Shown here piece by piece: positions 1 through 12,726 of a DNA stretch of 12,726 nucleotides (positions are counted from its first letter, which is position 1; each line of letters begins with the position of its first letter). Under the pieces are notes generated by a model, which was not told the origin of the DNA, ran no database searches, and saw nothing but the letters and a program-made list of their open reading frames with translations. Origin of the DNA: a virus (taxonomy: Duplodnaviria > Heunggongvirae > Uroviricota > Caudoviricetes). A program made the translations under genes and the position numbers. The stretch covers positions 1 to 12,726 of the IMG/VR virus record IMGVR_UViG_2651869782_000036; one strand, written 5' to 3'.

Positions 1-468
1 CCGTGGCCTTCCGCCACTCCGCCAACAGGCTGGCTGAAATGCAACGGTGCAGCATTTTCTGCTGAAGAATACCCGGAACTGGCAAAGGCTTATCCGACAA
101 ATAAATTGCCTGATTTACGTGGTGAGTTTATTCGTGGCTGGGATGACGGACGTGGTATGGATACGGGGAGGGCAATATTATCAGCTCAGGGCGATGCCAT
201 ACGTAATATCTATGGTGAGTTCAAGACTGTAAACACCGAAAATTATTCAATATGGGAAGTAGCAAGCTCGTTTAAGGGAGCAGTGGTGCCTTTGAGTCCC
301 TCTACAAACAATAGTTATTTCTCCTTAACCAGAAGTATGGTGACAGAAAGAGCAGACGGCGCTGTTTACCCAAAAGTGATAGGCCTTGATGCTTCAAGAA
401 TTGTTCCAACTGCAAACGAAAACCGTCCTCGTAACATTGCGTTTAATTACATCGTAAGGGCAGTATGA
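1..468 (+). CDS. Tail fibre C-terminal variable cassette 1 (5'-truncated by the window edge; presumably fused to the constant fibre N-terminus upstream, i.e. the expressed tip)
   Basis: Frame open from nt 1 (PWPSATPPTGWLKCNGAAF...LPDLRGEFIRGWDDGRG...) to TGA at 466-468. Tail-collar-like motif PDLRGxFxRGWDxGRG and conserved C-terminal RPRNIAFNYIVRAV. Confidence 0.8.
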   Translation, partial: PWPSATPPTGWLKCNGAAFSAEEYPELAKAYPTNKLPDLRGEFIRGWDDGRGMDTGRAILSAQGDAIRNIYGEFKTVNTENYSIWEVASSFKGAVVPLSPSTNNSYFSLTRSMVTERADGAVYPKVIGLDASRIVPTANENRPRNIAFNYIVRAV

Positions 469-487
469 AAACGTTGGTTTGGGGGAA
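462..487. other. Candidate Gin-family crossover site (gix/hix-like 26 bp: AGTATGAAAACG TT GGTTTGGGGGAA), + orientation
   Basis: Marks the exact left edge of the sequence shared by all cassette heads. Right half-site read as TTCCCCCAAACC matches the gix half-site TTCCTGTAAACC as I recall it in 9 of 12 positions; AAAAC/GTTTT dyad around a non-palindromic TT core. Overlaps the stop codon of cassette 1. Confidence 0.6.
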
Positions 488-937
488 GGCTCTGCGTTGC
501 CCGTTGGTGTACCTGTTCCGTGGCCCTCAGCCACACCGCCAGCAGGGTGGCTGAAATGTAACGGTGCAGCATTTTCTTCTAAAATGTACCCAAAACTGGC
601 AAAGGCCTACCCCACCAATAAATTACCAGACTTACGCGGTGAATTTATCCGTGGCTGGGATGATGGGCGCGGGGTGGATGCCGGAAGGGGCATCTTAAGC
701 ATGCAGGGGTGGTTAACAGGAAGTCATTATCATAATATTCGGTCATGGGATGCGTGGGATAACACGGTGTTGGTGCCAAATGACAAAGGAGGGGATAGTC
801 TGTTGTCGACAGATAACGCCGTCCGGCAAGGTGCAATTAACGGTAGATTTACCAGTCAATACAGAACGGAATCCTCAGAGGGGAATGAAACCCGCCCACG
901 CAATATTGCCTTCAATTATATTGTGAGAACCGCATAA
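479..937 (+). CDS. Tail fibre C-terminal variable cassette 2 (silent, promoter-less cassette; the TTG start in the ORF track is probably not used, the frame is open from 458 through the crossover site)
   Basis: 152-aa ORF with the same conserved head (GEGSALPVGVPVPWPSATPPAGWLKCNGAAF...PDLRGEFIRGWDDGRG) and tail (RPRNIAFNYIVRTA) but a different central region; stop TAA at 935-937 overlaps the tfa start. Confidence 0.8.
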   Translation: MGEGSALPVGVPVPWPSATPPAGWLKCNGAAFSSKMYPKLAKAYPTNKLPDLRGEFIRGWDDGRGVDAGRGILSMQGWLTGSHYHNIRSWDAWDNTVLVPNDKGGDSLLSTDNAVRQGAINGRFTSQYRTESSEGNETRPRNIAFNYIVRTA

Positions 938-1548
938 TGAATAACGCGATATTAAATGATGACCTTATTGCCGTACAGGCAGGAAACATCGTCGTTTATA
1001 ACTATGATGGTGAGACACGGGAATATATTTCCGAATCAACTGAATATCTTGCTGTGGGTGTCGGTATTCCGGCAAATTCCTGTTTAGATGCCCCGGGCGC
1101 ACATAAAGCGGGCTATGCTATCCGCCGTTCGGAGAATTTAAGCTCATGGGAGTATGCGCCAGACCATCGTGGTGAAACCGTCTATAGCACTGACACGGGA
1201 AACACCGAAGAAATCACGGCGCTGGGTGACTACCCGAAAAATACAACCACTATCGCCCCGTTAACACCATACGATAAATGGGATGGTGAAAAATGGGTGA
1301 CAGATACTGAGGCACAACATCGTGCCGCAGTAGAAGCGGCAGAAACCAAGCGCCAGTCACTGGCTGATGCGGCAATGGCTTCCATAAGTCTGATTCAGTT
1401 GAAGTTGCAGGCCGGGCGGAAGTTGACGCAGGCAGAAACCACCCGGCTTAATGCCGTGCTGGATTATATAGACGCGCTGAACGCAATGGATATAAACATG
1501 GCACCAGATATCAACTTGCCGGAAATACCACTGGCAGCAGCCAGTTGA
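937..1548 (+). CDS. Tail fibre assembly protein (Tfa; P2 G / Mu U family)
   Basis: 203 aa; the C-terminal region (EAAETKRQSLADAAMASISLIQ...LDYIDALNAMDINMAPDINLPEIP) has the character of the caudoviral tail-fibre-assembly domain; start ATG overlaps the cassette 2 stop (TAATG). Confidence 0.85.
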   Translation: MNNAILNDDLIAVQAGNIVVYNYDGETREYISESTEYLAVGVGIPANSCLDAPGAHKAGYAIRRSENLSSWEYAPDHRGETVYSTDTGNTEEITALGDYPKNTTTIAPLTPYDKWDGEKWVTDTEAQHRAAVEAAETKRQSLADAAMASISLIQLKLQAGRKLTQAETTRLNAVLDYIDALNAMDINMAPDINLPEIPLAAAS

Positions 1549-1554
1549 ATATAA

Positions 1555-2031
1555 CTAAGCCGCCCTCACGATATAGTTAAATGCAATATTGCGGGGGCGG
1601 GTTTCACTACCACCTGTGTTACCAATACTTCCTCGTGAATGAAGCGTTGGTGATGGAATCAAACTCCCTCCTGTATTTGTGGCATCAAGCCCCCTGCCTT
1701 GCGTATATGTTTTTTTGAAAATCGTGGCCAACTCCCATTCATCCTTTGTGTCATATCCATCGTTAGCTACAACAATATGGCGGTGTTTTTCCAACATCCC
1801 GTTTTGAATGCTCAATAAAGCGCGTGCCGCATCAATTCCTCGCCCATCATCCCAGCCACGGATAAATTCACCGCGTAAGTCTGGTAATTTATTGGTGGGG
1901 TAGGCCTTTGCCAGTTTTGGGTACTTTTCAGAAGAAAATGCTGCGCCGTTACATTTCAGCCATCCCGTTGGCGGCGTGGCTGAGGGCCATGGAACGGGCA
2001 CACCAACGGGCAGTGCAGAGCCTTCCCCCAA
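1555..2031 (-). CDS. Tail fibre C-terminal variable cassette 3 (inverted, silent)
   Basis: 158-aa minus-strand ORF with the conserved head and tail (…SETRPRNIAFNYIVRAA) and a unique centre; convergent with tfa. Confidence 0.8.
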   Translation of the reverse strand: MGEGSALPVGVPVPWPSATPPTGWLKCNGAAFSSEKYPKLAKAYPTNKLPDLRGEFIRGWDDGRGIDAARALLSIQNGMLEKHRHIVVANDGYDTKDEWELATIFKKTYTQGRGLDATNTGGSLIPSPTLHSRGSIGNTGGSETRPRNIAFNYIVRAA

Positions 2032-2048
2032 ACCAACGTTTTCATGCT
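2023..2048. other. Candidate Gin-family crossover site (inverted orientation; TTCCCCCAAACC AA CGTTTTCATGCT)
   Basis: Reverse complement differs from the site at 462-487 by one base; overlaps the cassette 4 stop codon and the cassette 3 head. Confidence 0.6.
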
Positions 2049-2470
2049 GCCCTTACGATGTAATTAAACGCAATATTACGAGGACGAATGGTTACATAAT
2101 TAACCCCATCACCTCGTGAAGGCCCTGCAAATGAAAAACGGGAAAAGCCTGGTTGGTTAGAAACAATTTGGTCATAGTTATTGATTGAATGACCAGACCC
2201 AATGTCGAAATTACCTCCGTAATGAGAAAAACTTGTACCATCCTGCCCTGAAAGCAGGGTACGTCCCGCATCAATCCCGCGCCCATCATCCCAGCCACGG
2301 ATAAATTCACCGCGTAAATCCGGTAATTTATTGGTGGGATAAGCCCTTGCCAGTCTGGGATACATTTCAGAAGAAAATGCTGCACCGTTACATTTCAGCC
2401 AGCCCGTTGGTGGTGTTGCTGAGGACCACGGAACGGGCACACCAACGGGCAGTGCAGAGCCTTCCCCCAA
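2042..2470 (-). CDS. Tail fibre C-terminal variable cassette 4 (inverted, silent)
   Basis: 142-aa minus-strand ORF, conserved head and tail (…IRPRNIAFNYIVRAA), Gly/Ser-rich unique centre. Confidence 0.8.
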   Translation of the reverse strand: MGEGSALPVGVPVPWSSATPPTGWLKCNGAAFSSEMYPRLARAYPTNKLPDLRGEFIRGWDDGRGIDAGRTLLSGQDGTSFSHYGGNFDIGSGHSINNYDQIVSNQPGFSRFSFAGPSRGDGVNYVTIRPRNIAFNYIVRAA

Positions 2471-2487
2471 ACCAACGTTTTCATGCT
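2462..2487. other. Candidate Gin-family crossover site (inverted orientation)
   Basis: Same 26-bp sequence as the site at 2023-2048 (TTCCCCCAAACCAACGTTTTCATGCT); overlaps the cassette 5 stop and the cassette 4 head. Confidence 0.6.
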
Positions 2488-2948
2488 GCCCTTACGATGT
2501 AATTAAACGCAATGTTATGGGGGCGTGTTTCAGATGCTGTGCGAACTGAGCGAGAGGCGTCGAATGTCCATACAGAAGCACCATATCCTTCAATGATCTC
2601 AGTTGGTTGTAAGCCTACTGATAATATAGAGTCAGTTTGACTAAATGGTCCTGAATTAAGCGCATCTTTAAAAAGCTGAGTACGCCCAAAAGTGCCAACT
2701 ATATTCTGAATAGCGTCAGACTGTGCAGACAGTAGGTTGCGCCCATTATCAACGCCCCGTCCGTCATCCCAGCCGCGAATAAATTCGCCCCGTAAATCCG
2801 GTAATTTATTGGTGGGGTAGGCCTTTGCCAGATTGGGGTACATTTCAGAAGAAAATGCTGCGCCGTTACATTTCAGCCACCCCGTTGGCAGCGTGGCTGA
2901 GGGCCATGGAACGGGCACGCCAACGGGCAACGCAGAGCCTTCCCCCAA
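2481..2948 (-). CDS. Tail fibre C-terminal variable cassette 5 (inverted, silent; the ORF-track extension to 3005 is probably fortuitous read-through into the invertase promoter region)
   Basis: Conserved head (GEGSALPVGVPVPWPSATLPTGWLKCNGAAF…) and tail (SETRPHNIAFNYIVRAA); the centre resembles cassette 1 (…SAQSDAIQNI…). Confidence 0.75.
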   Translation of the reverse strand: MGEGSALPVGVPVPWPSATLPTGWLKCNGAAFSSEMYPNLAKAYPTNKLPDLRGEFIRGWDDGRGVDNGRNLLSAQSDAIQNIVGTFGRTQLFKDALNSGPFSQTDSILSVGLQPTEIIEGYGASVWTFDASRSVRTASETRPHNIAFNYIVRAA

Positions 2949-2965
2949 ACCAACGTTTTCGTTTT
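2940..2965. other. Candidate Gin-family crossover site adjacent to the invertase gene (TTCCCCCAAACC AA CGTTTTCGTTTT)
   Basis: Same right half-site and core as the other three sites; the left arm differs because it is not preceded by a cassette 3' tail. Lies ~55 bp upstream of the invertase start, as for cix/gix next to cin/gin. Confidence 0.55.
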
Positions 2966-3019
2966 TATCCCTACCTATACCAACTCTGTATTTTTCACGA
3001 AACAAAGAGGATGTTTTTT

Positions 3020-3619
3020 ATGCAAATTGGCTATATTCGTGTGTCAACAAATGACCAGAACACGGATTTACAACGCAATGCACTGAACTGCGCAGGATGT
3101 GAACTGATTTTTGAAGATAAAATCAGCGGAACGAAATCAGCCAGACCGGGATTGAAAAAACTGCTCAGAACGCTATCAGAAGGAGATACGCTGGTTGTCT
3201 GGAAGCTGGACAGACTGGGCAGAAGTATGAAACACCTGATCACGCTTATTGAGGAATTGCGGGAAAAAGGTGTTAATTTCCGTAGTCTGACGGACAGCAT
3301 TGACACATCAACACCCATGGGGCGTTTCTTTTTTCACGTCATGGGGGCTTTAGCCGAAATGGAACGTGAATTAATTGTAGAGCGTACACTGGCCGGGCTG
3401 GCAGCAGCACGCGCACAAGGACGCATTGGCGGACGTCGCCCGAAGTTGACAAAAGAACAACACGAGCAAATAGCGAGGCTGATTAAAAACGGTCATGACA
3501 GGAAACAACTGGCGATCATTTACGACATCGGCATATCGACGATTTATCGTTATCACCCTGCAGGCGATATACAGGCTGAAGAAACAACCAGGCAGACTCA
3601 GGAAAATAAAAACCGCTAA
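3020..3619 (+). CDS. Site-specific DNA invertase, serine recombinase (Gin/Hin/Cin/Pin family)
   Basis: Start MQIGYIRVSTNDQNTDLQRNAL… is the hallmark invertase N-terminus with the catalytic Ser in GYIRVST; C-terminal HTH (GRRPKLTKEQHEQIARLIKNG…ISTIYRY). RBS AAAGAGG 9 nt upstream of ATG 3020. The ORF-track start at 2825 is rejected. Confidence 0.93.
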   Translation: MQIGYIRVSTNDQNTDLQRNALNCAGCELIFEDKISGTKSARPGLKKLLRTLSEGDTLVVWKLDRLGRSMKHLITLIEELREKGVNFRSLTDSIDTSTPMGRFFFHVMGALAEMERELIVERTLAGLAAARAQGRIGGRRPKLTKEQHEQIARLIKNGHDRKQLAIIYDIGISTIYRYHPAGDIQAEETTRQTQENKNR

Positions 3620-3641
3620 TCTGACCATTAGCGGTTTTGCG
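3608..3641. terminator. Bidirectional rho-independent terminator shared by the convergent invertase gene and tail operon
   Basis: Perfect 8-bp stem CCGCTAAT / ATTAGCGG (3613-3620, 3627-3634) with a 6-nt loop, flanked by an A-run on the left and TTTT on the right; the invertase stop codon lies inside the stem. Confidence 0.6.
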
Positions 3642-3645
3642 TTAA

Positions 3646-4134
3646 TCAAAACAGCCCTTTAACGGAGCTGGCCGCGCTGTTAAGGGATGATGTGACCTTA
3701 TCTTTGAAGCCGGACAGCATATCACTGAACGATGAGGATTGCAGGCGCTCCCGCAAATCCTCATCACAGCGTCCAAGAGTCAGTGAAAATTCTATCTTTT
3801 TCGCCTTACCGTAGCGATCAAACTCGGAACGGGTCGTATTCGTTTCAGTCAGTACATACATGCCGTAAATCTGCCCGACACCATCAATCAGAGGCCAGGG
3901 GCGTCCTGTATATGCCTGCGTGGTCAGCAACGAAAGCGACACTTCGCCACCTGTAATTTCAGGATAAAGCACGCCGGAAAGCACGATGCGATCATCACCT
4001 GCGCCGATATACTGCCAGCTTGCTGAACGATTAACGCGTTCATTTTTCACATGCCGCCAGCTTTTGTTTTGCTGTAACTGCTGATGCGGCAATGTGCGCA
4101 GCTCAAAAACAAACATGCCGTAGATCATCATCAT
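3646..4134 (-). CDS. U: Phage tail protein U (P2 gpU family)
   Basis: MMMIYGMFVFELRTLP…SASWQY…GGEVSLSLLTTQAYTGRPWPLIDG… resembles P2 gpU as I recall it; size and position after T fit. Start chosen at the second ATG (better SD spacing; the GAGGAG SD overlaps the T stop); ATG 4140 is the alternative. Confidence 0.85.
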   Translation of the reverse strand: MMMIYGMFVFELRTLPHQQLQQNKSWRHVKNERVNRSASWQYIGAGDDRIVLSGVLYPEITGGEVSLSLLTTQAYTGRPWPLIDGVGQIYGMYVLTETNTTRSEFDRYGKAKKIEFSLTLGRCDEDLRERLQSSSFSDMLSGFKDKVTSSLNSAASSVKGLF

Positions 4135-4146
4135 GGCCATGACTCC

Positions 4147-6963
4147 TCAATCTTTATCGTAAAAACTGCCACGTCCGGCACGGTCGCGTCGTTCCAATTC
4201 TGCCCTGACCATTTCACCGACCAGTTTCGCCAGTTCGCGGGGATTCTGCGTAACAACGTTATGCAGATGAACATGAATTTCACCGCCAAATCCGGAGACA
4301 ACAGGCTCCCGGTTACGGGAAGTTGCAGGAACTGATGCCACTGGCGATCGTATGGCCTCCGCCACCGGGCGGGAGCTGGCCGCAACAACAGGGACCAGCG
4401 CCGGAGGCAGAGGAGTCGGGACCACGGGTGTGATGTTGATTGCGGAAGCAGGCTTACTGACCTGCGCAATCTTCCGCTCCTGCCACTCCCCACGAACAGC
4501 AAGTGCGCGGGGCAGGTTCTTAAAGACAATATCGCCGGGGCCAATGCGTTTTTTCGTCTCATCAACCAGCTTACCTGTGTTATCAGCAATTTTGCTGAGT
4601 CTGCGTAGCGTACCGGTATTGCTGTCTGTGAGCGGTTTGTTGTCTTTGGGTTTATCACCTCCGGTGCCATTGCCATTTTCCACAGGCTTCGGCGGATTGA
4701 TTTTCGCCAGGTCCCCCTGAAGCAAGGCAACCTTGTCCTGAAGAATGGCCGCACGCTGTGCGTCTTCGATTTTCTTGCGCGCCCTTTCCGCTTCATCCGG
4801 AAGGACGCCAAGTTTTTCAAGTATCCACGCCAGCGTATCCAGTAGCATTTTTGCAGGCGTCAGAACAAGTTGTAACGCACCGCCAAGAACGTTACCGAAT
4901 ATCTCGCCAGCACTGGTACATTTTTCCAGCGTTTCCTTGCTGGACTCCATCGGTGACAGCAGCGATTTAAACCAGTTAAACACCTGGCTGATCCCGCTTC
5001 CGATTGCGTCAAAAACAGGACCAAACCGTTCAAAGGTTTCGCGCAACGGGGCCAGCCTTTCCATAATCCCGCTGAACACCCCGGCAAAAAATGCCCTGAT
5101 GGGATCCCAGTATTTCCAGATAAGAACGGCAGCTCCGGCAAGTGCAGCCACGATAAGACTAACCGGACTGAACAGCGCCCCGATAGCGCCTCCCAGTAAA
5201 GAAACGGAACCCGTCACCATTCCCCATAGTGCTGGCAGGACCCTGACAGCATTCATTGATCCGGTCAGGAGAGAAAAACCAAGACGCAGTTTTGCCAGCG
5301 GACCAGCAAGCATACCAATAGCCAGCGACAACGAGCCAACCGTTGCAGTCATTGCCAGCAACGCACCGCCTGCTATCAGTAGCTGGCGCGTCAGTGCCGG
5401 ATGGGCCTGCGCCAGCGCCGTCACCCTTGATACCACCCGCGTGAGCCACTGCGTGACAGAACGCAGCGGACCGTCAATCAGATCTGCAATGCGGATGCGC
5501 AACCCTTCCCATGCACTGCCGAGTGATTTCAGATCGCCGTCAAGGTTGTTGGCCATAACCTTTGCTGTGCGTTCAGCCTCACCGCGCGCGCCTTCAAGTT
5601 CTTTTCTCAGTTTGGGTAAGGAACCGTCACCCACTGCATCAACGAGCGCCATAAACGATGTGAAAGCCTCTTCTCCGGCAATGTCCTTAAAGAACGATAC
5701 CCGGTCAACTTCCCCGTATTTGCGGGTGGCTTTATAAAGGTCGGCCAGCACATCCTCCATCGGGCGCATTTTACCCCCGGCATCCGAGACGGACACGCCC
5801 AGCTCTTTCAGAGCTTCTGCCGCCGCCTTTGGCGGTGATGCCAGACGAGCCAGGCTGGCACGCATTGCCGTCCCGGCATCACTCCCTCTGATGCCCATAT
5901 TCGCCAGCACGCCAGCCATCGCTGCGGCCTGCTCCAGCGATATTCCCAGCTTACCCGCCACCGGACCTGCATATTTCATGGTTTCGCCCAGTGCGCGAAG
6001 GTCAGTGTTGGTACGGGTAAACGCTGCGGTGAGTGTGTCACCGACCCGGTCCATCTGGTCAGCAGAAAGGCCGAACTGCGTCAGGATATTTGAGCCAATA
6101 TCTGCCGTCTCGCCGAGATCCATACCGCCAGCCGTTGCCATGCTCAGCACTCCGGGAAGCGCAGCCTGAATGGCCTGCGGTGTGAAGCCTGCCATTGCAA
6201 GAAATGCCTGCCCACTGGCGGCATCGCCTGCAGTGAACTGCGTTTCAGAGCCAAGTTTTAACGCCTGTTCACGCAGCGCCTTAAACTGCGGGCTGTTCTG
6301 GTCGATTCGCGTCAGTGCCTGAACGCGGGACATCTCTTTCCCGAACCCGATCGCAGGCTGCAAAAAACGCCCGGCAGCATAGCTGCCAGCCGCTGCCGCA
6401 CCAATTGCCAGCGCACCACCTGTTTTCAGTTTTCCCGCGGTTTCCTGCGCGCGCGAATACCGCTCACGCGCACGTGTTACACGCGCAAGCGCCTGCCGTT
6501 CGCGTTCAAGCTGGTTGTTGTACTGTTCGGTGCGTCTGATGGCCTGCTGGATGGTGTTATCGCTGCCTGTCAGGGAAATGCCGTGGCGTTTCAGCTCTCC
6601 GCCAAGCTCCCGCATTTTCTGAATTTCCCGTGTGCGCGATTCATTCAGGCGTTCAAGCCGGGTGCTTAACTGCTGCATCAGCTTTTGTTGTTTTTCGCTG
6701 AGCACTGTACCCGTGCGTTGTAACTGATTAAGGGCGTTAAGCTGGCGTCGTGCTTTCAATATGCCAGCATCCGCTTTACCGACAGCGTCACGGGCGCGCT
6801 CAAATGAACGCGCCTGACGCTCGAGATTTTTGATCGCCCCCTGCGTTCGCTGGATGGAGTCACCAAACTGCCCCATCAGGCGGCGGGCGTTTTCGGCAGG
6901 CCGGGTCAGCCTGTCAACGGCGCTGAAAGCGACCCGGATGTCAAGAGTCTTCATTGTCTGCAT
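4147..6963 (-). CDS. T: Tail tape measure protein (P2 gpT family)
   Basis: ~940-aa Ala/Gly/Leu-rich ORF with a coiled-coil-like N-terminal half and hydrophobic Gly-rich segments, located between the E/E' chaperone and U. Start uncertain (ATG 6963 or 6954; the ORF track uses GTG 6990). Confidence 0.85.
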   Translation of the reverse strand: MQTMKTLDIRVAFSAVDRLTRPAENARRLMGQFGDSIQRTQGAIKNLERQARSFERARDAVGKADAGILKARRQLNALNQLQRTGTVLSEKQQKLMQQLSTRLERLNESRTREIQKMRELGGELKRHGISLTGSDNTIQQAIRRTEQYNNQLERERQALARVTRARERYSRAQETAGKLKTGGALAIGAAAAGSYAAGRFLQPAIGFGKEMSRVQALTRIDQNSPQFKALREQALKLGSETQFTAGDAASGQAFLAMAGFTPQAIQAALPGVLSMATAGGMDLGETADIGSNILTQFGLSADQMDRVGDTLTAAFTRTNTDLRALGETMKYAGPVAGKLGISLEQAAAMAGVLANMGIRGSDAGTAMRASLARLASPPKAAAEALKELGVSVSDAGGKMRPMEDVLADLYKATRKYGEVDRVSFFKDIAGEEAFTSFMALVDAVGDGSLPKLRKELEGARGEAERTAKVMANNLDGDLKSLGSAWEGLRIRIADLIDGPLRSVTQWLTRVVSRVTALAQAHPALTRQLLIAGGALLAMTATVGSLSLAIGMLAGPLAKLRLGFSLLTGSMNAVRVLPALWGMVTGSVSLLGGAIGALFSPVSLIVAALAGAAVLIWKYWDPIRAFFAGVFSGIMERLAPLRETFERFGPVFDAIGSGISQVFNWFKSLLSPMESSKETLEKCTSAGEIFGNVLGGALQLVLTPAKMLLDTLAWILEKLGVLPDEAERARKKIEDAQRAAILQDKVALLQGDLAKINPPKPVENGNGTGGDKPKDNKPLTDSNTGTLRRLSKIADNTGKLVDETKKRIGPGDIVFKNLPRALAVRGEWQERKIAQVSKPASAINITPVVPTPLPPALVPVVAASSRPVAEAIRSPVASVPATSRNREPVVSGFGGEIHVHLHNVVTQNPRELAKLVGEMVRAELERRDRAGRGSFYDKD

Positions 6964-7162
6964 TCCCGCTGCGAAGTGCCGCCCGCTCACGCCAGCTAAC
7001 CACTTCGCCGGGCGTCATCATGAAGATTTCGGCGGGCGACCAGTTAAAAATGGCGGCGATATCTGCCACCAGATCTTCGATGTGCTCAAAGCACACCAGG
7101 GTGATTACGCTGCCGTCTCCTGCACGCTCTTCGCGCCAGAGTCTGGCTCGCTCATAAAATTT
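6941..7162 (-). CDS. E' extension: -1 frame ORF giving the E+E' tail assembly chaperone by programmed frameshift
   Basis: An ORF in the -1 frame relative to E, with no independent SD, overlaps the 3' part of E and the start of T; a canonical slippery heptamer A AAT TTT sits in the E frame inside the overlap. Confidence 0.5.
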   Translation of the reverse strand, partial: KFYERARLWREERAGDGSVITLVCFEHIEDLVADIAAIFNWSPAEIFMMTPGEVVSWRERAALRSGNADNEDS

Positions 7163-7479
7163 ACAGCCACAGCGCACAACTGAATAAAATCGCGTGACGA
7201 CATTTTTTTAATCATCACTTCATCCAGTCGTGGCGAGGTCACGCGAGGCAACAGCGTGAACATGGTATCCGCTTTCAGATTCAGCACATCAGACAGCGAC
7301 AGACCACGCAGGGATCCAGCCTGTTCAATAGCCCCGGTGATCTCCACATACGTGATTTTTTCGCCACCACGCTCAATTGGTCGGGTCAGTTTTACGCCAC
7401 GTTCGACAGCCATATCCTCACCTGCCGTCACATCATCCGCCACGGTGTTATTCCGGGTTTCAGTATCGATGTCTTTCAT
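7105..7479 (-). CDS. E: Tail assembly chaperone E (P2 gpE family)
   Basis: 124-aa ORF between tube and tape measure genes with a strong SD (AAAGGAG, 7 nt spacing); the position and the overlapping -1 ORF match the conserved chaperone pair (lambda G/GT, P2 E/E+E'). Confidence 0.7.
   Translation of the reverse strand: MKDIDTETRNNTVADDVTAGEDMAVERGVKLTRPIERGGEKITYVEITGAIEQAGSLRGLSLSDVLNLKADTMFTLLPRVTSPRLDEVMIKKMSSRDFIQLCAVAVNFMSEPDSGAKSVQETAA
7156..7162 (-). other. Candidate -1 programmed frameshift slippery heptamer A AAT TTT (read on the minus strand)
   Basis: Zero-frame codons GTA AAT TTT ATG (…AVNFM…); a -1 re-pairing gives AAA TTT TAT GAG… = KFYE…, exactly the E' reading frame. Confidence 0.4.
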
Positions 7480-7534
7480 CAGTTGTCTCCTTTTCAGTCA
7501 GAGGCGACGCACTGCGCCGCCTGCATATTACTTA

Positions 7535-8047
7535 TCAGCCAAGCCCGAGCGCGGAACGGATGCGATCGGGCACAATGTCCTTGCCGTCCTTCCGGTAAAT
7601 GAAGTTCAGCAGGTCAATCTCCCACAACGGGCGATCGTTAACACTCAGCTTGTAGTAGGTGTTTTTAATGGCGTAAGTGTGTGATGTGGCTTCGCCCTGT
7701 TTGGCTTCCCCCATATCAATTTCCGTCACACGTCCGCGCATTTCGACTTCATACAGGTCGCTTTCTGCATCGGTGTAGTATTCACCCGCAAAACGCAGCA
7801 GCGTGCCGTCAATCGTGCCGCCATACTTAAGGAACAGCTCACGAACTGCGCCCCCCATGACAAAGCTCGCATCAAGCGCGGAGTCGTCCAGACCGAGATC
7901 AATACTTACCGCACCCATCATGCCACCACCCCGGTAGCTGTCGGTTTTGCGCGTCAGCTTAGGCAGAGTGACGGACGTCACCTTACCCACTTCGTTTTCA
8001 CCATCCACAAACAGCGTAAAAAAGCGAAGATGTTTTGGTACAGCCAT
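7535..8047 (-). CDS. FII: Tail tube protein (P2 gpFII family)
   Basis: 170 aa; MAVPKHLRFFTLFVDGENEVGKVTSVTLPKLTRKTDSYRGGGMMGAVSIDLGLDD… resembles P2 FII as I recall it (…VTLPKLTRK…YRGAGM…DLGLDD…). Start ATG overlaps the FI stop (TGATG); SD GGGAGG. Confidence 0.88.
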   Translation of the reverse strand: MAVPKHLRFFTLFVDGENEVGKVTSVTLPKLTRKTDSYRGGGMMGAVSIDLGLDDSALDASFVMGGAVRELFLKYGGTIDGTLLRFAGEYYTDAESDLYEVEMRGRVTEIDMGEAKQGEATSHTYAIKNTYYKLSVNDRPLWEIDLLNFIYRKDGKDIVPDRIRSALGLG

Positions 8048-9231
8048 CAGGCACCTCCCAGCACCGCAAATGCGGGACCAAAGAATTCATCAGTAAACGA
8101 CTGGTAAAGCTCCATGTCTTCCAGCGGGGGAACAGGCGTATATTTGTAGCGAATACGCACGCGCCCCTGACGTAAATTCGTGGTGCCGTTATCCACCACG
8201 TCATACCAGCACGACGCCCCAATCAGTTTCCCGGCAGTAACCAGTGAATCCAGTTTTGCCCTGATGGCACTGATAACATCTTTCACGTTCGCAGGCGTCA
8301 GTGGACTGTCGATGGTTTCAAACTGCGCTTCCGCAATTGAATCAGCCAGCACCTGTGCGGTTCGGGTATACACCTCAAAGATGTAGGCGTTCGTTTCCGG
8401 TGTGCGGTTGCCCCAGAAGCGGAACCCGTTGCGACGAATAATGGTCGTGATTTCTTTGTTGTTGAGGCTGTTGGCATCACTGTCTTCGGCCTGCAACGAC
8501 CAGAACACATGCCTAGACATCCCCAGCACATTTTTAACCGGAACGTTGGACAGCGATTTGTGCCAGCCCTGCTCATGGTCAATGTACGCACGAAGGCCGC
8601 ACGCATAGGCAGGCGCGGGGAACGTTTCGTTTTTGCCACTTTTCGGGTTGTAGGCGATGAAGTCCGGCCATAAGAGCATCACCTCACGTTCGTTGAATTT
8701 CTGGCGATAGGTAATCGCCTCAGCCATCGTGTTACAGCCGTGACATGAGGCATACACAAACGCGCGCAGTTTACCTGCAATCACGCACAGGGATTTTGTT
8801 ACCGCCTCCGTGTCCAGCTCCGGCGCGGCCAGAATACGCGGACGGTATCCGATGCTTTCATCCTGCTCTGCAACAAGCAGCGCATACATCCCCGTATAGC
8901 TGCCGTCAGATTCAGAACCACCGATAACCAGTTGATCCTGCGTTTTTCCGTCTTCTTCTTTGTGTTCAGCCACGCGAACGACGATCACCTTTGTGCTCAC
9001 CTGGTCTGCGATGGCCTTAAGCGCACGATAAAGCGTCCCCGTTGTTCCGCATTTTCCCAGCACGTCATTGACGCGGGTCAGCAGTGTGGGCTTGTTCAGC
9101 GGGAACAGCTCCGCATCCGCATCATCCGCCGTTGCCACGATACCGATAACACTGGAATCAACATCATTAATCGCTGTTACCAGGTCGGTACTTTCCGTAA
9201 CACGGGCACCATGAAAACGAGTTTCACTCAT
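8047..9231 (-). CDS. FI: Contractile tail sheath protein (P2 gpFI family)
   Basis: 394 aa; motifs shared with P2 FI as I recall it (ADDADAELFPLNKP, GFRFWGNRT, YTRTAQV, YTPVPPLE); SD AAGGGG upstream of ATG 9231. Confidence 0.9.
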   Translation of the reverse strand: MSETRFHGARVTESTDLVTAINDVDSSVIGIVATADDADAELFPLNKPTLLTRVNDVLGKCGTTGTLYRALKAIADQVSTKVIVVRVAEHKEEDGKTQDQLVIGGSESDGSYTGMYALLVAEQDESIGYRPRILAAPELDTEAVTKSLCVIAGKLRAFVYASCHGCNTMAEAITYRQKFNEREVMLLWPDFIAYNPKSGKNETFPAPAYACGLRAYIDHEQGWHKSLSNVPVKNVLGMSRHVFWSLQAEDSDANSLNNKEITTIIRRNGFRFWGNRTPETNAYIFEVYTRTAQVLADSIAEAQFETIDSPLTPANVKDVISAIRAKLDSLVTAGKLIGASCWYDVVDNGTTNLRQGRVRIRYKYTPVPPLEDMELYQSFTDEFFGPAFAVLGGA

Positions 9232-9388
9232 AGCTTCAGCCCCTTGTATCCGTTAAATGATTCAGCAACAATCATCACCCACCACGCGCGTAATCTCACC
9301 CCTGCGCTATTCTCCCGCCACGGCGACAACAAAAAGCAGTAACCCACTCCGCACGCACATGCGACCATGCCGCACAGGGAGGGAACAG

Positions 9389-10498
9389 ATGACCGACACC
9401 ACCATGCAATTGCTCAGTCAGGGCACAGACCCCGTGAAAATGCCGGATTTTGATATTCTCGCGGAGGGTAAAACGCTGTCCGGCGTGGCAGAGCGCCTGA
9501 TGAGCCTGTCGCTGACCGACAACCGGGGATTTGAGGCGGACCAGCTCACCATCACGCTGGATGATGCCGATGGCCAGTTGCAGCTACCGCCACGGGGCGC
9601 GCGTCTGACGGTTCTCATTGGCTGGAAAGGGGAACCGCTGACAGAAAAAGGCACTTACATTGTTGATGAAATCGCTCACGAAGGACCGCCGGACAGGCTG
9701 ACTGTTTCAGCCAGAAGCGCAGATTTTCGGGATGAATTTAACGTTAAACGTGAGGTGTCCTGGCATGATGTGACCGTTGAGCGTGTGGTATCCGCCATCG
9801 CTCATCGGTACGGTCTGAAACCGCAAATCAGCGAAATGCTGATGGATATCGAAATCGACCACGCCGACCAGACCGAAGAAAGCGACATGTCCTTTCTTAC
9901 GCGCATGGCGGAAATGCTGGGCGCAATCACCACGGTAAAAAGCGGCAATCTGTTATTCATCATGCCAGGTGGTGGCGTGAACGCACAGGGCCAGCCGTTG
10001 CCCTCGTTCGCCATTACACGCAGCAGCGGCGATCGCCATCAGTTCCGTATTGCTGACCGCGAGGCGTATACGGGGGTACGCGCCTACTGGCTTGATCTTA
10101 ATTACGGGAAAAAGAAAAAAGTCAGCGTGAAACGCCGTAAACCGCCAAAACCCAAAAAGGAGAAAAGCAGCAGCCGTGAAGGTGATTATATGGAAGGCGC
10201 GGAAGGCAATGTGTTTGTGTTACGCAAGACTTATCAGAACGAGCAGGCAGCAAGACGCGCAGCGGCGGCAAAGTGGCAGCAACTACAACGCGGAGCCGCA
10301 TCATTCTCCATCACACTGGCTCGTGGACGCGCAGAACTCTACCCCGAAATGCATGGCACGGTGACAGGCTTCAAAAGTGACATCGACAATCAGGACTGGA
10401 TTATTGCAAAAGCCGAGCACACCATTGATAACAGCGGCTTTACCACGCAGCTTGAGCTTGAAGCAAAAATCCCGGAATGGATAGCAGAAACAGAGTGA
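9389..10498 (+). CDS. D: Phage late control / tail protein D (P2 gpD family)
   Basis: ~369 aa from ATG 9389, preceded by SD GGGAGGGAA; contains LSLSLTDNRGFEADQLTITLDDADG, which matches the gpD family as I recall it. The ORF-track start at 9257 is rejected as having no SD. Adjacent to ogr as in P2. Confidence 0.75.
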   Translation: MTDTTMQLLSQGTDPVKMPDFDILAEGKTLSGVAERLMSLSLTDNRGFEADQLTITLDDADGQLQLPPRGARLTVLIGWKGEPLTEKGTYIVDEIAHEGPPDRLTVSARSADFRDEFNVKREVSWHDVTVERVVSAIAHRYGLKPQISEMLMDIEIDHADQTEESDMSFLTRMAEMLGAITTVKSGNLLFIMPGGGVNAQGQPLPSFAITRSSGDRHQFRIADREAYTGVRAYWLDLNYGKKKKVSVKRRKPPKPKKEKSSSREGDYMEGAEGNVFVLRKTYQNEQAARRAAAAKWQQLQRGAASFSITLARGRAELYPEMHGTVTGFKSDIDNQDWIIAKAEHTIDNSGFTTQLELEAKIPEWIAETE

Positions 10499-10540
10499 GC
10501 AACTTAGAATAGCGGCAGCACCACGTTAAGGGAGGTCGCT

Positions 10541-10801
10541 ATGTTCCGTTGTCCGCTTTGTGGCGCATCTGCCCGTATCCGCACCAGTCGTTCGGAAAAT
10601 GATTCAAACACCGTACGGAAAAAATATTACCAGTGTAACAACCTGGAATGCGGCATAAGTTTCTCAACACTGGAAGCTTTCCATAAATTCACATCGAAAC
10701 ACGCCCCCGGCGTTCACTCTTCAGAAGGTATCCCGTGGCATGAGTTGCCAGCTTCACACAGGGGAAACAATCAGATGAGTTTGCCTTTATCTCAGAATTA
10801 A
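10541..10801 (+). CDS. ogr: Ogr/Delta-family zinc-finger late transcription activator
   Basis: 86 aa; MFRCPLCG…(22 aa)…CNNLEC gives the C-X2-C-X22-C-X4-C spacing typical of Ogr; N-terminus resembles P2 Ogr (MFHCPLC…). SD TAAGGGAGG 5 nt upstream. Confidence 0.8.
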   Translation: MFRCPLCGASARIRTSRSENDSNTVRKKYYQCNNLECGISFSTLEAFHKFTSKHAPGVHSSEGIPWHELPASHRGNNQMSLPLSQN

Positions 10802-10810
10802 CAGGCAGAA

Positions 10811-10839
10811 TTGCCGGAGTAACAAAAAAGCGATAGATT
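10811..10839 (+). promoter_or_regulatory. Putative sigma70 promoter of the hok-like transcript (-35 TTGCCG, 17-bp spacer, -10 TAGATT)
   Basis: Hexamers are weak matches to consensus (4/6 each), with 17-bp spacing, placed so that a transcript would begin near 10846, at the 5' element that is complementary to the 3' end of the transcript. Sequence-only guess. Confidence 0.3.
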
Positions 10840-10992
10840 ACGCGCGGGTGCCTTTCGGCTGATGGTCGGAGGGAATACCCGAAGGCCGGATGTGGAAAGG
10901 CCCCGGAAAACATCTCTGTTTAACCGAGGCCCTAACATATCTACCTTAAGCAAGTGATAGGTTAGCGCCTCTCCAACAAAGGAGCAAGCGCT

Positions 10993-11133
10993 ATGTCGCA
11001 AAAATCGCTTACGGCCATCACGTTCTGCGTGACGGTAATCCTCATAATCTGGATGCTGCACGGTTCGCTGTGTGAAATACGGATGAGCTTCTGGGGAGCG
11101 GAGTTTGCGGCGTTCTTACAGTGTAAGCAGTAA
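10993..11133 (+). CDS. Hok/Gef-family type I toxin-like small membrane protein (46 aa)
   Basis: MSQKSLTAITFCVTVILIIWMLHGSLCEIRMSFWGAEFAAFLQCKQ: N-terminal hydrophobic helix followed by SLCEIR and E-x-AAF-x-x-C/Y, as in Hok (…[23 protein letters not shown]…). SD AAGGAG 8 nt upstream of the ATG. Below the 60-aa cutoff of the ORF track. Confidence 0.65.
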   Translation: MSQKSLTAITFCVTVILIIWMLHGSLCEIRMSFWGAEFAAFLQCKQ

Positions 11134-11220
11134 GGAAACCGCGACGGGGGAGCAATCCCCCGTCAATCGGTTGCCAGGGTAAGGTCGATAAGGCACCCTA
11201 TCTCACAGACATGAACAACA

Positions 11221-11253
11221 AACCCGCAGCGTAAAAACTGCGGGTTTTCTTTT
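11221..11253 (+). terminator. Rho-independent terminator (downstream of the hok-like gene)
   Basis: Stem CCCGCAG / CTGCGGG with an 8-nt loop, followed by TTTTCTTTTT. Confidence 0.65.
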
Positions 11254-11284
11254 TGGTTCCCTCACTCATGAGGACACCAAAAAC

Positions 11285-11317
11285 AAAGCCCATAGCATAG
11301 AATGCTGTGGGCTTTTT
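11285..11317. terminator. Hairpin with flanking T-runs on both strands (bidirectional terminator candidate)
   Basis: AAAGCCCATAGCA (loop tagaa) TGCTGTGGGCTTT then TTTTT on +; on the minus strand the same hairpin is followed by TTTGTTTTTGG. Confidence 0.5.
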
Positions 11318-11392
11318 GCATTCAAAGATGGACGTTATATGGACACTTAAAAATAAAATCCATTTATTTTCAAATAATTAAACTTCTACTTA

Positions 11393-11413
11393 AAGCGCCC
11401 GCAGGCGCTTTTT
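11393..11413. terminator. GC hairpin plus T-run immediately downstream of serS (terminator candidate, better formed for + strand transcription)
   Basis: AAGCGCC (loop CGCA) GGCGCTT followed by TTT on +; on the serS (minus) side the trailing run is only TTTAAG, so the assignment to serS is uncertain. Confidence 0.45.
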
Positions 11414-11433
11414 AGATTCAGAAAAATTGGGTA

Positions 11434-12726
<1,293 letters not shown>

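Follow-up and report, generated by a model that had tools for sequence, protein, structure and literature searches.

A single tail-fibre assembly gene carried on an inverting module among the five tip cassettes of a P2-like prophage

The 12,726-nucleotide (nt) stretch of viral DNA analysed here, positions 1 to 12,726 of IMG/VR record IMGVR_UViG_2651869782_000036 and hereafter the window, carries at its left end five alternative tail-fibre tip cassettes and one tail-fibre assembly gene, tfa. They belong to a host-range switch of the Min (multiple-inversion) type in a P2-like prophage, and the single flipping tfa is the normal state of the described class, represented by p15B Min and by the prophage of E2348/69, rather than a peculiarity of the window. 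The best explanation as a whole, which we regard as reasonably probable, combines this switch with a generic Tfa that would serve every collar-type tip and would be supplied also when its gene lies antisense to the fibre gene H; taken by itself, supply independent of orientation is close to an even proposition, if anything slightly below it. The main new points are that cassette 3 alone is obliged to be used with an antisense tfa, that antisense isomers are common in nature, and that the chaperone is probably generic for tips of the collar type.

Tip cassettes, crossover sites and invertase

The array and the adjoining invertase gene comprise the following features (aa, amino acids).

1-468, + strand: tip cassette 1 (type T2); collar domain, E=2.4e-14; 5' end beyond the window
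462-487, + strand: crossover site 2 (26 bp), 21-nt core at 467-487; core GAAAACG TT GGTTTGGGGGAA
479-937, + strand: tip cassette 2 (type T1); collar domain, E=1.8e-15
937-1548, + strand: tfa (203 aa); Caudo_TAP, E=1.9e-31
1555-2031, - strand: tip cassette 3 (type T0); collar domain; convergent with tfa
2023-2048, - strand: crossover site 3, 21-nt core at 2023-2043; shared core
2042-2470, - strand: tip cassette 4 (type T9); collar domain, E=3.1e-14
2462-2487, - strand: crossover site 4, 21-nt core at 2462-2482; shared core
2481-2948, - strand: tip cassette 5 (type T3); collar domain
2940-2965, - strand: crossover site 5, 21-nt core at 2940-2960; fixed right boundary beside the invertase gene
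3020-3619, + strand: Din-family serine DNA invertase (Gin/Cin/Pin/Min type); Resolvase E=1.4e-51, HTH_7 E=3.8e-13

For comparison, 42 genome loci, 80 IMG/VR loci and 10 loci encoding an identical Tfa protein were examined; gpI, H, the cassettes, tfa, the invertase, gpU and the crossover sites were mapped in each, and the cassettes were typed by their variable parts.

All five cassettes encode 142-158 aa and open with a Phage Tail Collar domain (E 1.8e-15 to 3.9e-14). Most of the first ~63 aligned residues are invariant among them, as is the closing R-P-x-N-I-A-F-N-Y-I-V-R (cassette 1 ends in the conserved RPRNIAFNYIVRAV), whereas the stretch between these two parts cannot be aligned. A cassette matches the tip of T4 gp37 (PDB 2XGF) at both of these ends, in the collar (residues 5-68) and in the C-terminal NIAFNYIVR. 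The T4 gp37/gp38 and lambda Stf/Tfa systems, which the array resembles in this respect, nevertheless have no invertible switch, and the tips in the window are much shorter than theirs. The conserved collar would consist of the ~65 N-terminal residues together with the C-terminal RPRNIAFNYIVRA strand, the two enclosing a variable receptor-binding insert, an arrangement that the tip of T4 gp37 shares. From what is known of the gp37 structure, we take the two conserved cassette ends to form one collar domain and the insert to be the distal, receptor-binding part.

In the present isomer, the constant part of H very probably continues into cassette 1. Five is also very probably the complete number of cassettes, because gpI and H directly precede the cassettes in relatives and because five other genomes carry the same five types. 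The open reading frame (ORF) called mechanically for cassette 5 extends to 3005 from a TTG start, which raised the possibility that a tip is also expressed from the right-hand side of the array; this was rejected, as a stop codon lies just upstream and the flank is unlike the H junction, and inspection by eye found no ribosome-binding sequence upstream of this TTG.

Two observations on the tips stand apart from these results. HxH motifs (HYH, HRH) occur in the variable parts of cassettes 2 (707-745) and 3 (1770-1800), in the region of alignment columns 75-90, and the needle of T4 gp37 binds metal through HxH motifs, while a GDAI(R/Q)NI motif is common to cassettes 1 and 5 and to the short fibre of PDB 9CUY. 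The tips thus fall into two or more structural sub-classes, and both of the cassettes that flank tfa, 2 and 3, are of the HxH class.

The 21-nt core TTCCCCCAAACCAACGTTTTC is identical in four sites, one on the + strand (467-487) at the 5' edge of cassette 2 and three on the - strand (2023, 2462, 2940) at the 5' edges of cassettes 3, 4 and 5; site 2 also holds the stop codon of cassette 1. These are Din-type sites, namely imperfect dyads of ~26 bp that share a 2-bp core and occur in inverted orientation. The inverted repeats have arms of 179-283 nt with 76-90% complementarity, which is far above chance. As the window begins ~46 nt inside cassette 1, site 1 would sit just upstream of it, at a distance of about 20-46 nt, and the relatives do repeat the right half-site and the TT core of the other sites where H joins its cassette (...LDYLGLGEGSALPVG).

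The invertase matches the Mu Gin structures 4M6F/3UJ3 over its full length (residues 1-187, E=1e-91) and has the architecture that defines the Din family, an N-terminal catalytic Resolvase domain followed by a C-terminal HTH_7 domain. Such a Gin-like enzyme would recombine the five sites and so join any of the five C-terminal tips in frame onto the constant part of H. The defining features of a Min-type array are all present: more than two sites, several 3' cassettes for one constant gene, overlapping invertible segments, and one double-ended module that carries the sole tfa. That inversion takes place is evident from the relatives, among which the same five cassettes are found in six permutations across genomes, and from two assemblies of E2348/69 that differ from one another.

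The fixed spacer between site 5 and the start codon of the invertase contains an exact TGT-N12-ACA dyad (2987-3004). Its spacing is unfit for a P2 late promoter in either direction, and it is possible that it serves as an operator or enhancer element of the invertase gene.

One tfa gene for five tips

The tfa product matches the Pfam family Caudo_TAP (PF02413) with an E-value of 1.9e-31 (109 bits, compared with a cut-off of 22), and public gene calls for the identical protein add Caudo_TAP_N; this protein is indexed in 1539 blocks of a public assembly collection. The ATG of the gene (937-939) overlaps the TAA stop codon of cassette 2 (935-937) in the sequence TAATG (935-939), so that the coupling of tfa to cassette 2 proposed in the sequence-only reading of this DNA is plainly visible. 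On its other side, the stop codons of tfa and cassette 3 converge over a 6-nt spacer that holds no crossover site.

The same reading held that a single tfa serves five tips, and this stands, since tfa is the sole Caudo_TAP gene beside five collar cassettes and a profile search of the window ORFs found no second one. It had also named additional tfa genes just upstream of the window as a finding that would overturn it. The relatives exclude such genes: wherever the upstream region is present, no tfa precedes H, and gpI and H are followed directly by the cassettes, for which reason an extra tfa beyond the left end of the window was rejected. The pairing of one tfa with each alternative tip (U and U') that characterises the Mu G and P1 C segments is accordingly not what is found here, although the rule of one tfa per tip does hold for two-state switches among the relatives (L078, L126).

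Isomers of the array

A search for the core found no crossover site within 479-2031, the segment that spans cassette 2, tfa and cassette 3, and the array therefore consists of four modules: cassette 1, the double-ended unit cassette 2-tfa-cassette 3, cassette 4 and cassette 5. Because tfa lies inside the double-ended module, it is inverted with that module. All inversions between oppositely oriented sites were enumerated by simulation, giving 48 array isomers (4! x 2, with four modules permuted and the double-ended one flippable). The same n! x 2 rule yields 4 for an array of three cassettes and 240 for one of six sites, in agreement with published figures: the passages of PMC4272514 on the P2-like prophage of E2348/69 describe four coexisting variants detected by polymerase chain reaction, and the part of PMC2481393 that bears on p15B Min quotes 240 isomers (5! 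x 2).

In half of the isomers (24 of 48) tfa is co-oriented with H. When cassette 2 is expressed, tfa is always sense and coupled to it, whereas cassette 3 can be expressed only with tfa antisense to H; cassettes 1, 4 and 5 each have six sense and six antisense isomers. It had been proposed from the sequence that inversions bringing cassettes 3, 4 or 5 to the expression site would turn tfa antisense. This applies to any single inversion from the present isomer, and to cassette 3 without exception, but not to cassettes 4 and 5 in general, as either of these can be expressed with a sense tfa after two inversions.

The relatives show that both orientations occur naturally. The multi-cassette arrays whose Tfa is at least 83% identical to that of the window hold 3-9 cassettes and, with L045 as the sole exception, one tfa each. 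T1, the type of cassette 2, precedes tfa in nearly all arrays, and the cassette convergent with tfa is T0 in most P2-like prophages and T4 or T5 in P1-type phage-plasmid-like loci. Exactly the five types of the window recur in L128, L129, L130, L134 and L135, in five other permutations that are all allowed by the model. Orientation can be read in 35 related arrays, of which 20 have a sense tfa and 15 an antisense one. Furthermore, H is fused directly and in frame to T0, with the antisense tfa right behind it, in L056, L059, L128 and L136. The two E2348/69 assemblies illustrate the switch itself: NC_011601.1 reads H-T9, T0, then antisense tfa and T1, and NZ_CP059840.2 reads H-T1, tfa, then antisense T0 and T9, the whole segment being inverted relative to the first.

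The exception, the IMG/VR contig L045, encodes the identical Tfa and contains (5632-9107) a palindromic T0-tfa-T1 | T1-tfa-T0 arrangement joined inside the collar repeat. As a genuine two-tfa array it was set aside, since the join probably arose as an artefact when short reads from mixed isomers were assembled. No close multi-cassette array was found among isolated phage genomes in the phage collection, and the P1-like phage vB_EcoM-673R5 was left out of the comparison because of its poor annotation. Members of the tfa family (~80% nucleotide identity or more) are present in 1071 of 5426 complete Escherichia coli genomes, with a median of one copy per carrier.

A chaperone for tips of one architecture

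With one gene and five tips, the chaperone would be a generic one, directed at the conserved part of the tip, and one copy of Tfa would serve all five. The comparison of relatives makes it probable that one Tfa suffices in this manner. Where relatives have a two-state switch or none, a tfa 77-81% identical to that of the window immediately follows each of more than 20 tip types, with a TAATG or TGATG overlap at the junction; these types include T0, T2 and T3 (cassettes 3, 1 and 5 of the window) as well as T4, T5, T8, T11-13, T15 and T17. Nor does the chaperone change appreciably with its partner. Identity between Tfa proteins that adjoin the same tip type and those that adjoin different types is 0.92 as against 0.82 over residues 1-70, 0.92 as against 0.88 over residues 71-140, and 0.88 in both cases from residue 141 to the end. 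Judged by these identities, the Tfa sequence hardly co-varies with tip type.

There is precedent for a chaperone that acts on a conserved part of divergent tips, as lambda Tfa can replace gp38 of T4. The N-terminal domain of Tfa has been described as the part that binds the fibre, normally its variable part (as North et al. 2019 are summarised in the relevant passage of PMC9608196). The conservation of the Tfa N-terminus seen here would instead fit binding to the conserved collar.

The exceptions to sharing follow the architecture of the tip. On the P1-like plasmid of L139 (NZ_CP069886.1, 3591-5473), T1-tfa (200 aa) faces a tfa' of 138 aa with a gp53-like tip that lacks the collar; the six collar cassettes of that array share the 200-aa tfa, and the gp53-like tip has the 138-aa gene of its own. 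Similarly, the two-state relatives that pair one collar tip with one non-collar tip possess two different tfa genes (L078, L126). The rule thus appears, on these sequence comparisons, to be one chaperone per tip architecture and not one per tip.

Supply of Tfa in antisense isomers

If Tfa is needed by every tip, then the 24 antisense isomers call for a source of it. In the explanation that we favour, Tfa would still be made in these isomers from a promoter on its own strand. The argument for this is an indirect one. Cassette 3 can be used only with an antisense tfa, yet it is conserved and is found fused to H in nature, which points to the use of H-cassette 3 fibres and therefore to the availability of Tfa when its gene is antisense. 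The variable parts of all tip types are under purifying selection, with ratios of nonsynonymous to synonymous divergence (pN/pS) of 0.13-0.28, and the lowest value belongs to the cassette 3 type (0.13, with a pS of 0.32), which is intact everywhere it was examined.

Several points weigh against this explanation. The scan for sigma-70-like sites gave none on the + strand of 1-4200 and only 2 hits overall, compared with 5.7 expected from shuffled sequences, and a sigma-70 promoter for tfa was rejected on the absence of a + strand hit in that interval. The sole exact dyad of the P2 late type upstream of tfa, TGT-N12-ACA at 768-785, lies inside cassette 2. As an Ogr-type late promoter it was likewise rejected, exact dyads numbering 2 against 3.2 expected and those with one mismatch 58 against 58.8; moreover, the dyad is not conserved, its TGT arm reading TAC or TAT in most relatives. 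Read-in from the convergent late operon FI-U would be opposed by a predicted strong terminator after U, the hairpin at 3609-3638, in which a 12-bp stem is followed by a T-run on the - strand that would end this operon, with only four T on the + strand as judged by eye. Selection on the cassette 3 type could also act elsewhere, since the type stands alone in L064 and L065 and is coupled to tfa in L007, L088, L107, L110, L112 and L126. Isomer frequencies in assemblies of lysogens say nothing about the function of the virion, and the binding of Tfa to the collar is itself something that we infer from sequence.

Altogether, the promoter scan, the dyad search and the comparison of relatives found no conserved promoter for tfa. 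Synonymous divergence does fall, to a pS of 0.06-0.11, in T1 codons 77-114, upstream of tfa; as a promoter signal this constraint is ambiguous, because the variable parts of T2 and T5 are similarly low (0.13). The idea that the reversed FI-U operon is an adaptation that supplies tfa by read-in was also rejected, given the terminator after U and the presence of the same reversed block in the two-tfa locus L126.

The strongest rival takes these negative results at face value: tfa would be transcribed only within the late operon of H, and the 24 antisense isomers, including all those that express cassette 3, would be fibre-defective, whether as an on/off switch or as a cost. Its appeal lies in the TAATG coupling of tfa to cassette 2 together with the lack of a detectable promoter of its own, in the near-constancy of the T1-tfa unit across arrays, which suggests expression as a unit, in the terminator that blocks read-in from the other side, and in the median of one tfa-family copy per genome, which usually leaves no backup. 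However, the type of cassette 3, which in these arrays can be used only in antisense isomers, is intact everywhere with the lowest pN/pS (0.13) and keeps its position in most of the P2-like arrays examined, and a design that has persisted in both P2-like prophages and P1-like plasmids would pay heavily if half of its isomers were lost. We therefore regard dependence on orientation as unlikely, although it retains an appreciable share of the probability.

Somewhat less probable again is that the flip of tfa is itself regulatory, with half of the isomers lacking the chaperone and antisense RNA arising by read-through from H, or that an orientation-independent late promoter lies inside the coding sequence of T1. 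Either would add a new regulatory layer to Min-type switches.

It is improbable that some tips, cassette 3 above all, fold without Tfa, so that tfa would matter only for cassette 2 and its sense partners. That cassette 2 alone is physically coupled to tfa would accord with this. Yet the cassette 3 type directly precedes a tfa of the same family in the six relatives already listed as coupled, as the types of cassettes 1 and 5 likewise do elsewhere, and the gp37-like collar and C-terminal motif are common to all tips. This C-terminal motif marks fibres that depend on gp38/Tfa. Finally, there is little to recommend the idea that a different prophage in the same host provides Tfa in trans to isomers whose own tfa is antisense: the family is common in complete E. 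coli genomes and nearly interchangeable in sequence, but the other prophages would have to be co-induced, and a backup is unlikely because the median is one copy per carrying genome.

The sequence-only reading had left three outcomes side by side, namely a promoter of its own for tfa, tips that need no chaperone, and function restricted to certain isomers. The first has gained no promoter from these searches, the comparisons speak against the second, and the purifying selection on cassette 3 speaks weakly against the third.

Comparison with known switches

A close described counterpart in mechanism is p15B Min, with its P1-like phage-plasmid relatives. Like the window, it combines a Din-type serine invertase with more than two sites, each at the 5' edge of a cassette, splices tips onto a constant fibre gene, and has one double-ended module, n! 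x 2 isomers and a single tfa; it differs in being carried on a P1-like plasmid with six sites, whereas the window belongs to a chromosomal P2-like prophage with five. A plasmid region reported to be 99% identical to p15B min contains one 612-nt tfaE (203 aa) among cassette ORFs of ~150 aa (PMC5786510). It is from this single tfaE, together with the arrays of the relatives, that the single flipping tfa is seen to be normal for the class. The IMG/VR loci that resemble P1-type phage-plasmids, a likeness seen in part from a match to a Punavirus genome, also possess T1-tfa, with an 83% identical Tfa and up to 8-9 cassettes, but the cassette convergent with their tfa is T4 or T5 and not the T0 of the window.

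The P2-like prophage 'shufflon' of the EPEC strain E2348/69 is of the same phage lineage and near-identical in sequence, with 98-99% nucleotide identity over tfa, the cassettes, the invertase and the tail genes, an identical Tfa protein and the same T1-tfa-T0 module. It has three cassettes, three sites and four variants, compared with five, five and 48 in the window. The passages of Goldberg et al. 2014 (PMC4272514) that deal with the fibre switch make no mention of a chaperone gene.

The Mu G segment (Gin), the P1 C segment (Cin) and the two-state P2-like switches share with the window a Gin-like invertase, a fibre gene divided into constant and invertible parts, and a tfa that follows the tip with a stop/start overlap. 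Unlike the window, they have two sites and two tips with one tfa for each, as in the relatives L078 and L126, the latter at the same serS site. The R64 shufflon similarly permutes alternative C-termini of one adhesin gene by multiple inversions, but it does so with the tyrosine recombinase Rci, it acts on a pilus adhesin and it has no internal chaperone gene; an R64-type system, with Rci acting on sfx repeats, is not what the window contains, as its recombinase is a serine invertase.

These comparisons bear on more than one prophage, since multi-cassette fibre switches are common: the tfa family occurs in ~20% of complete E. coli genomes, and related arrays are found on P1-like phage-plasmids. 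Should one generic Tfa indeed fold any collar-type tip, host-range engineering of phages and tailocins of the P2/P1 type would become simpler, in that an insert of ~70 residues could be swapped while one chaperone is kept. If, on the other hand, the orientation of tfa gates fibre assembly, half of the isomers would be silent and isomer frequencies would have to be read differently.

Genomic setting

The window covers the right end of a prophage of the P2 type, which adjoins serS (11434-12726, - strand). Both serS and ogr are 98-99% matches to E. coli chromosomes, and for the switch region the best E. coli match is 96.7%. From the left, the array of five tip ORFs and tfa is followed by the invertase, the tail genes on the - strand, D and ogr on the + strand, and serS. 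The features between the invertase gene and the end of ogr are as follows.

3609-3638, scored on the - strand: hairpin, predicted terminator, between the invertase gene and U
3646-9231, - strand: tail genes U, T, E', E, FII, FI
9390-10801, + strand: D and ogr

In the canonical gene order of P2, the tail operon FI-U is not reversed relative to H, D and ogr. In the window the FI-FII-E-E'-T-U operon is reversed relative to these genes, which parts D from U and leaves D facing FI over a divergent spacer of ~160 nt (9232-9389). This arrangement is kept in relatives, including one two-state switch with two tfa genes at the same serS site. The mechanically called ORF of D begins at 9257, and the length of D in relatives (366-369 aa) fits a start at the ATG at 9390 (MTDTTMQLL...).

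Between D and ogr, relatives carry cargo, a TIR-domain protein in APEC E12053 (L126, 19542-20456) and a hypothetical gene in ECA64 (L001, 19337-20002). In the window D abuts ogr (10498-10541), so that this position resembles a hotspot for cargo or defence genes with no insert in the present prophage. An ORF of 46 aa for a Hok/Gef-type toxin lies between ogr and serS (10993-11133, + strand); its match to HokA is weak (E=6e-9, under the curated cut-off), and annotations of related E. coli prophages give it as Hok/Gef.

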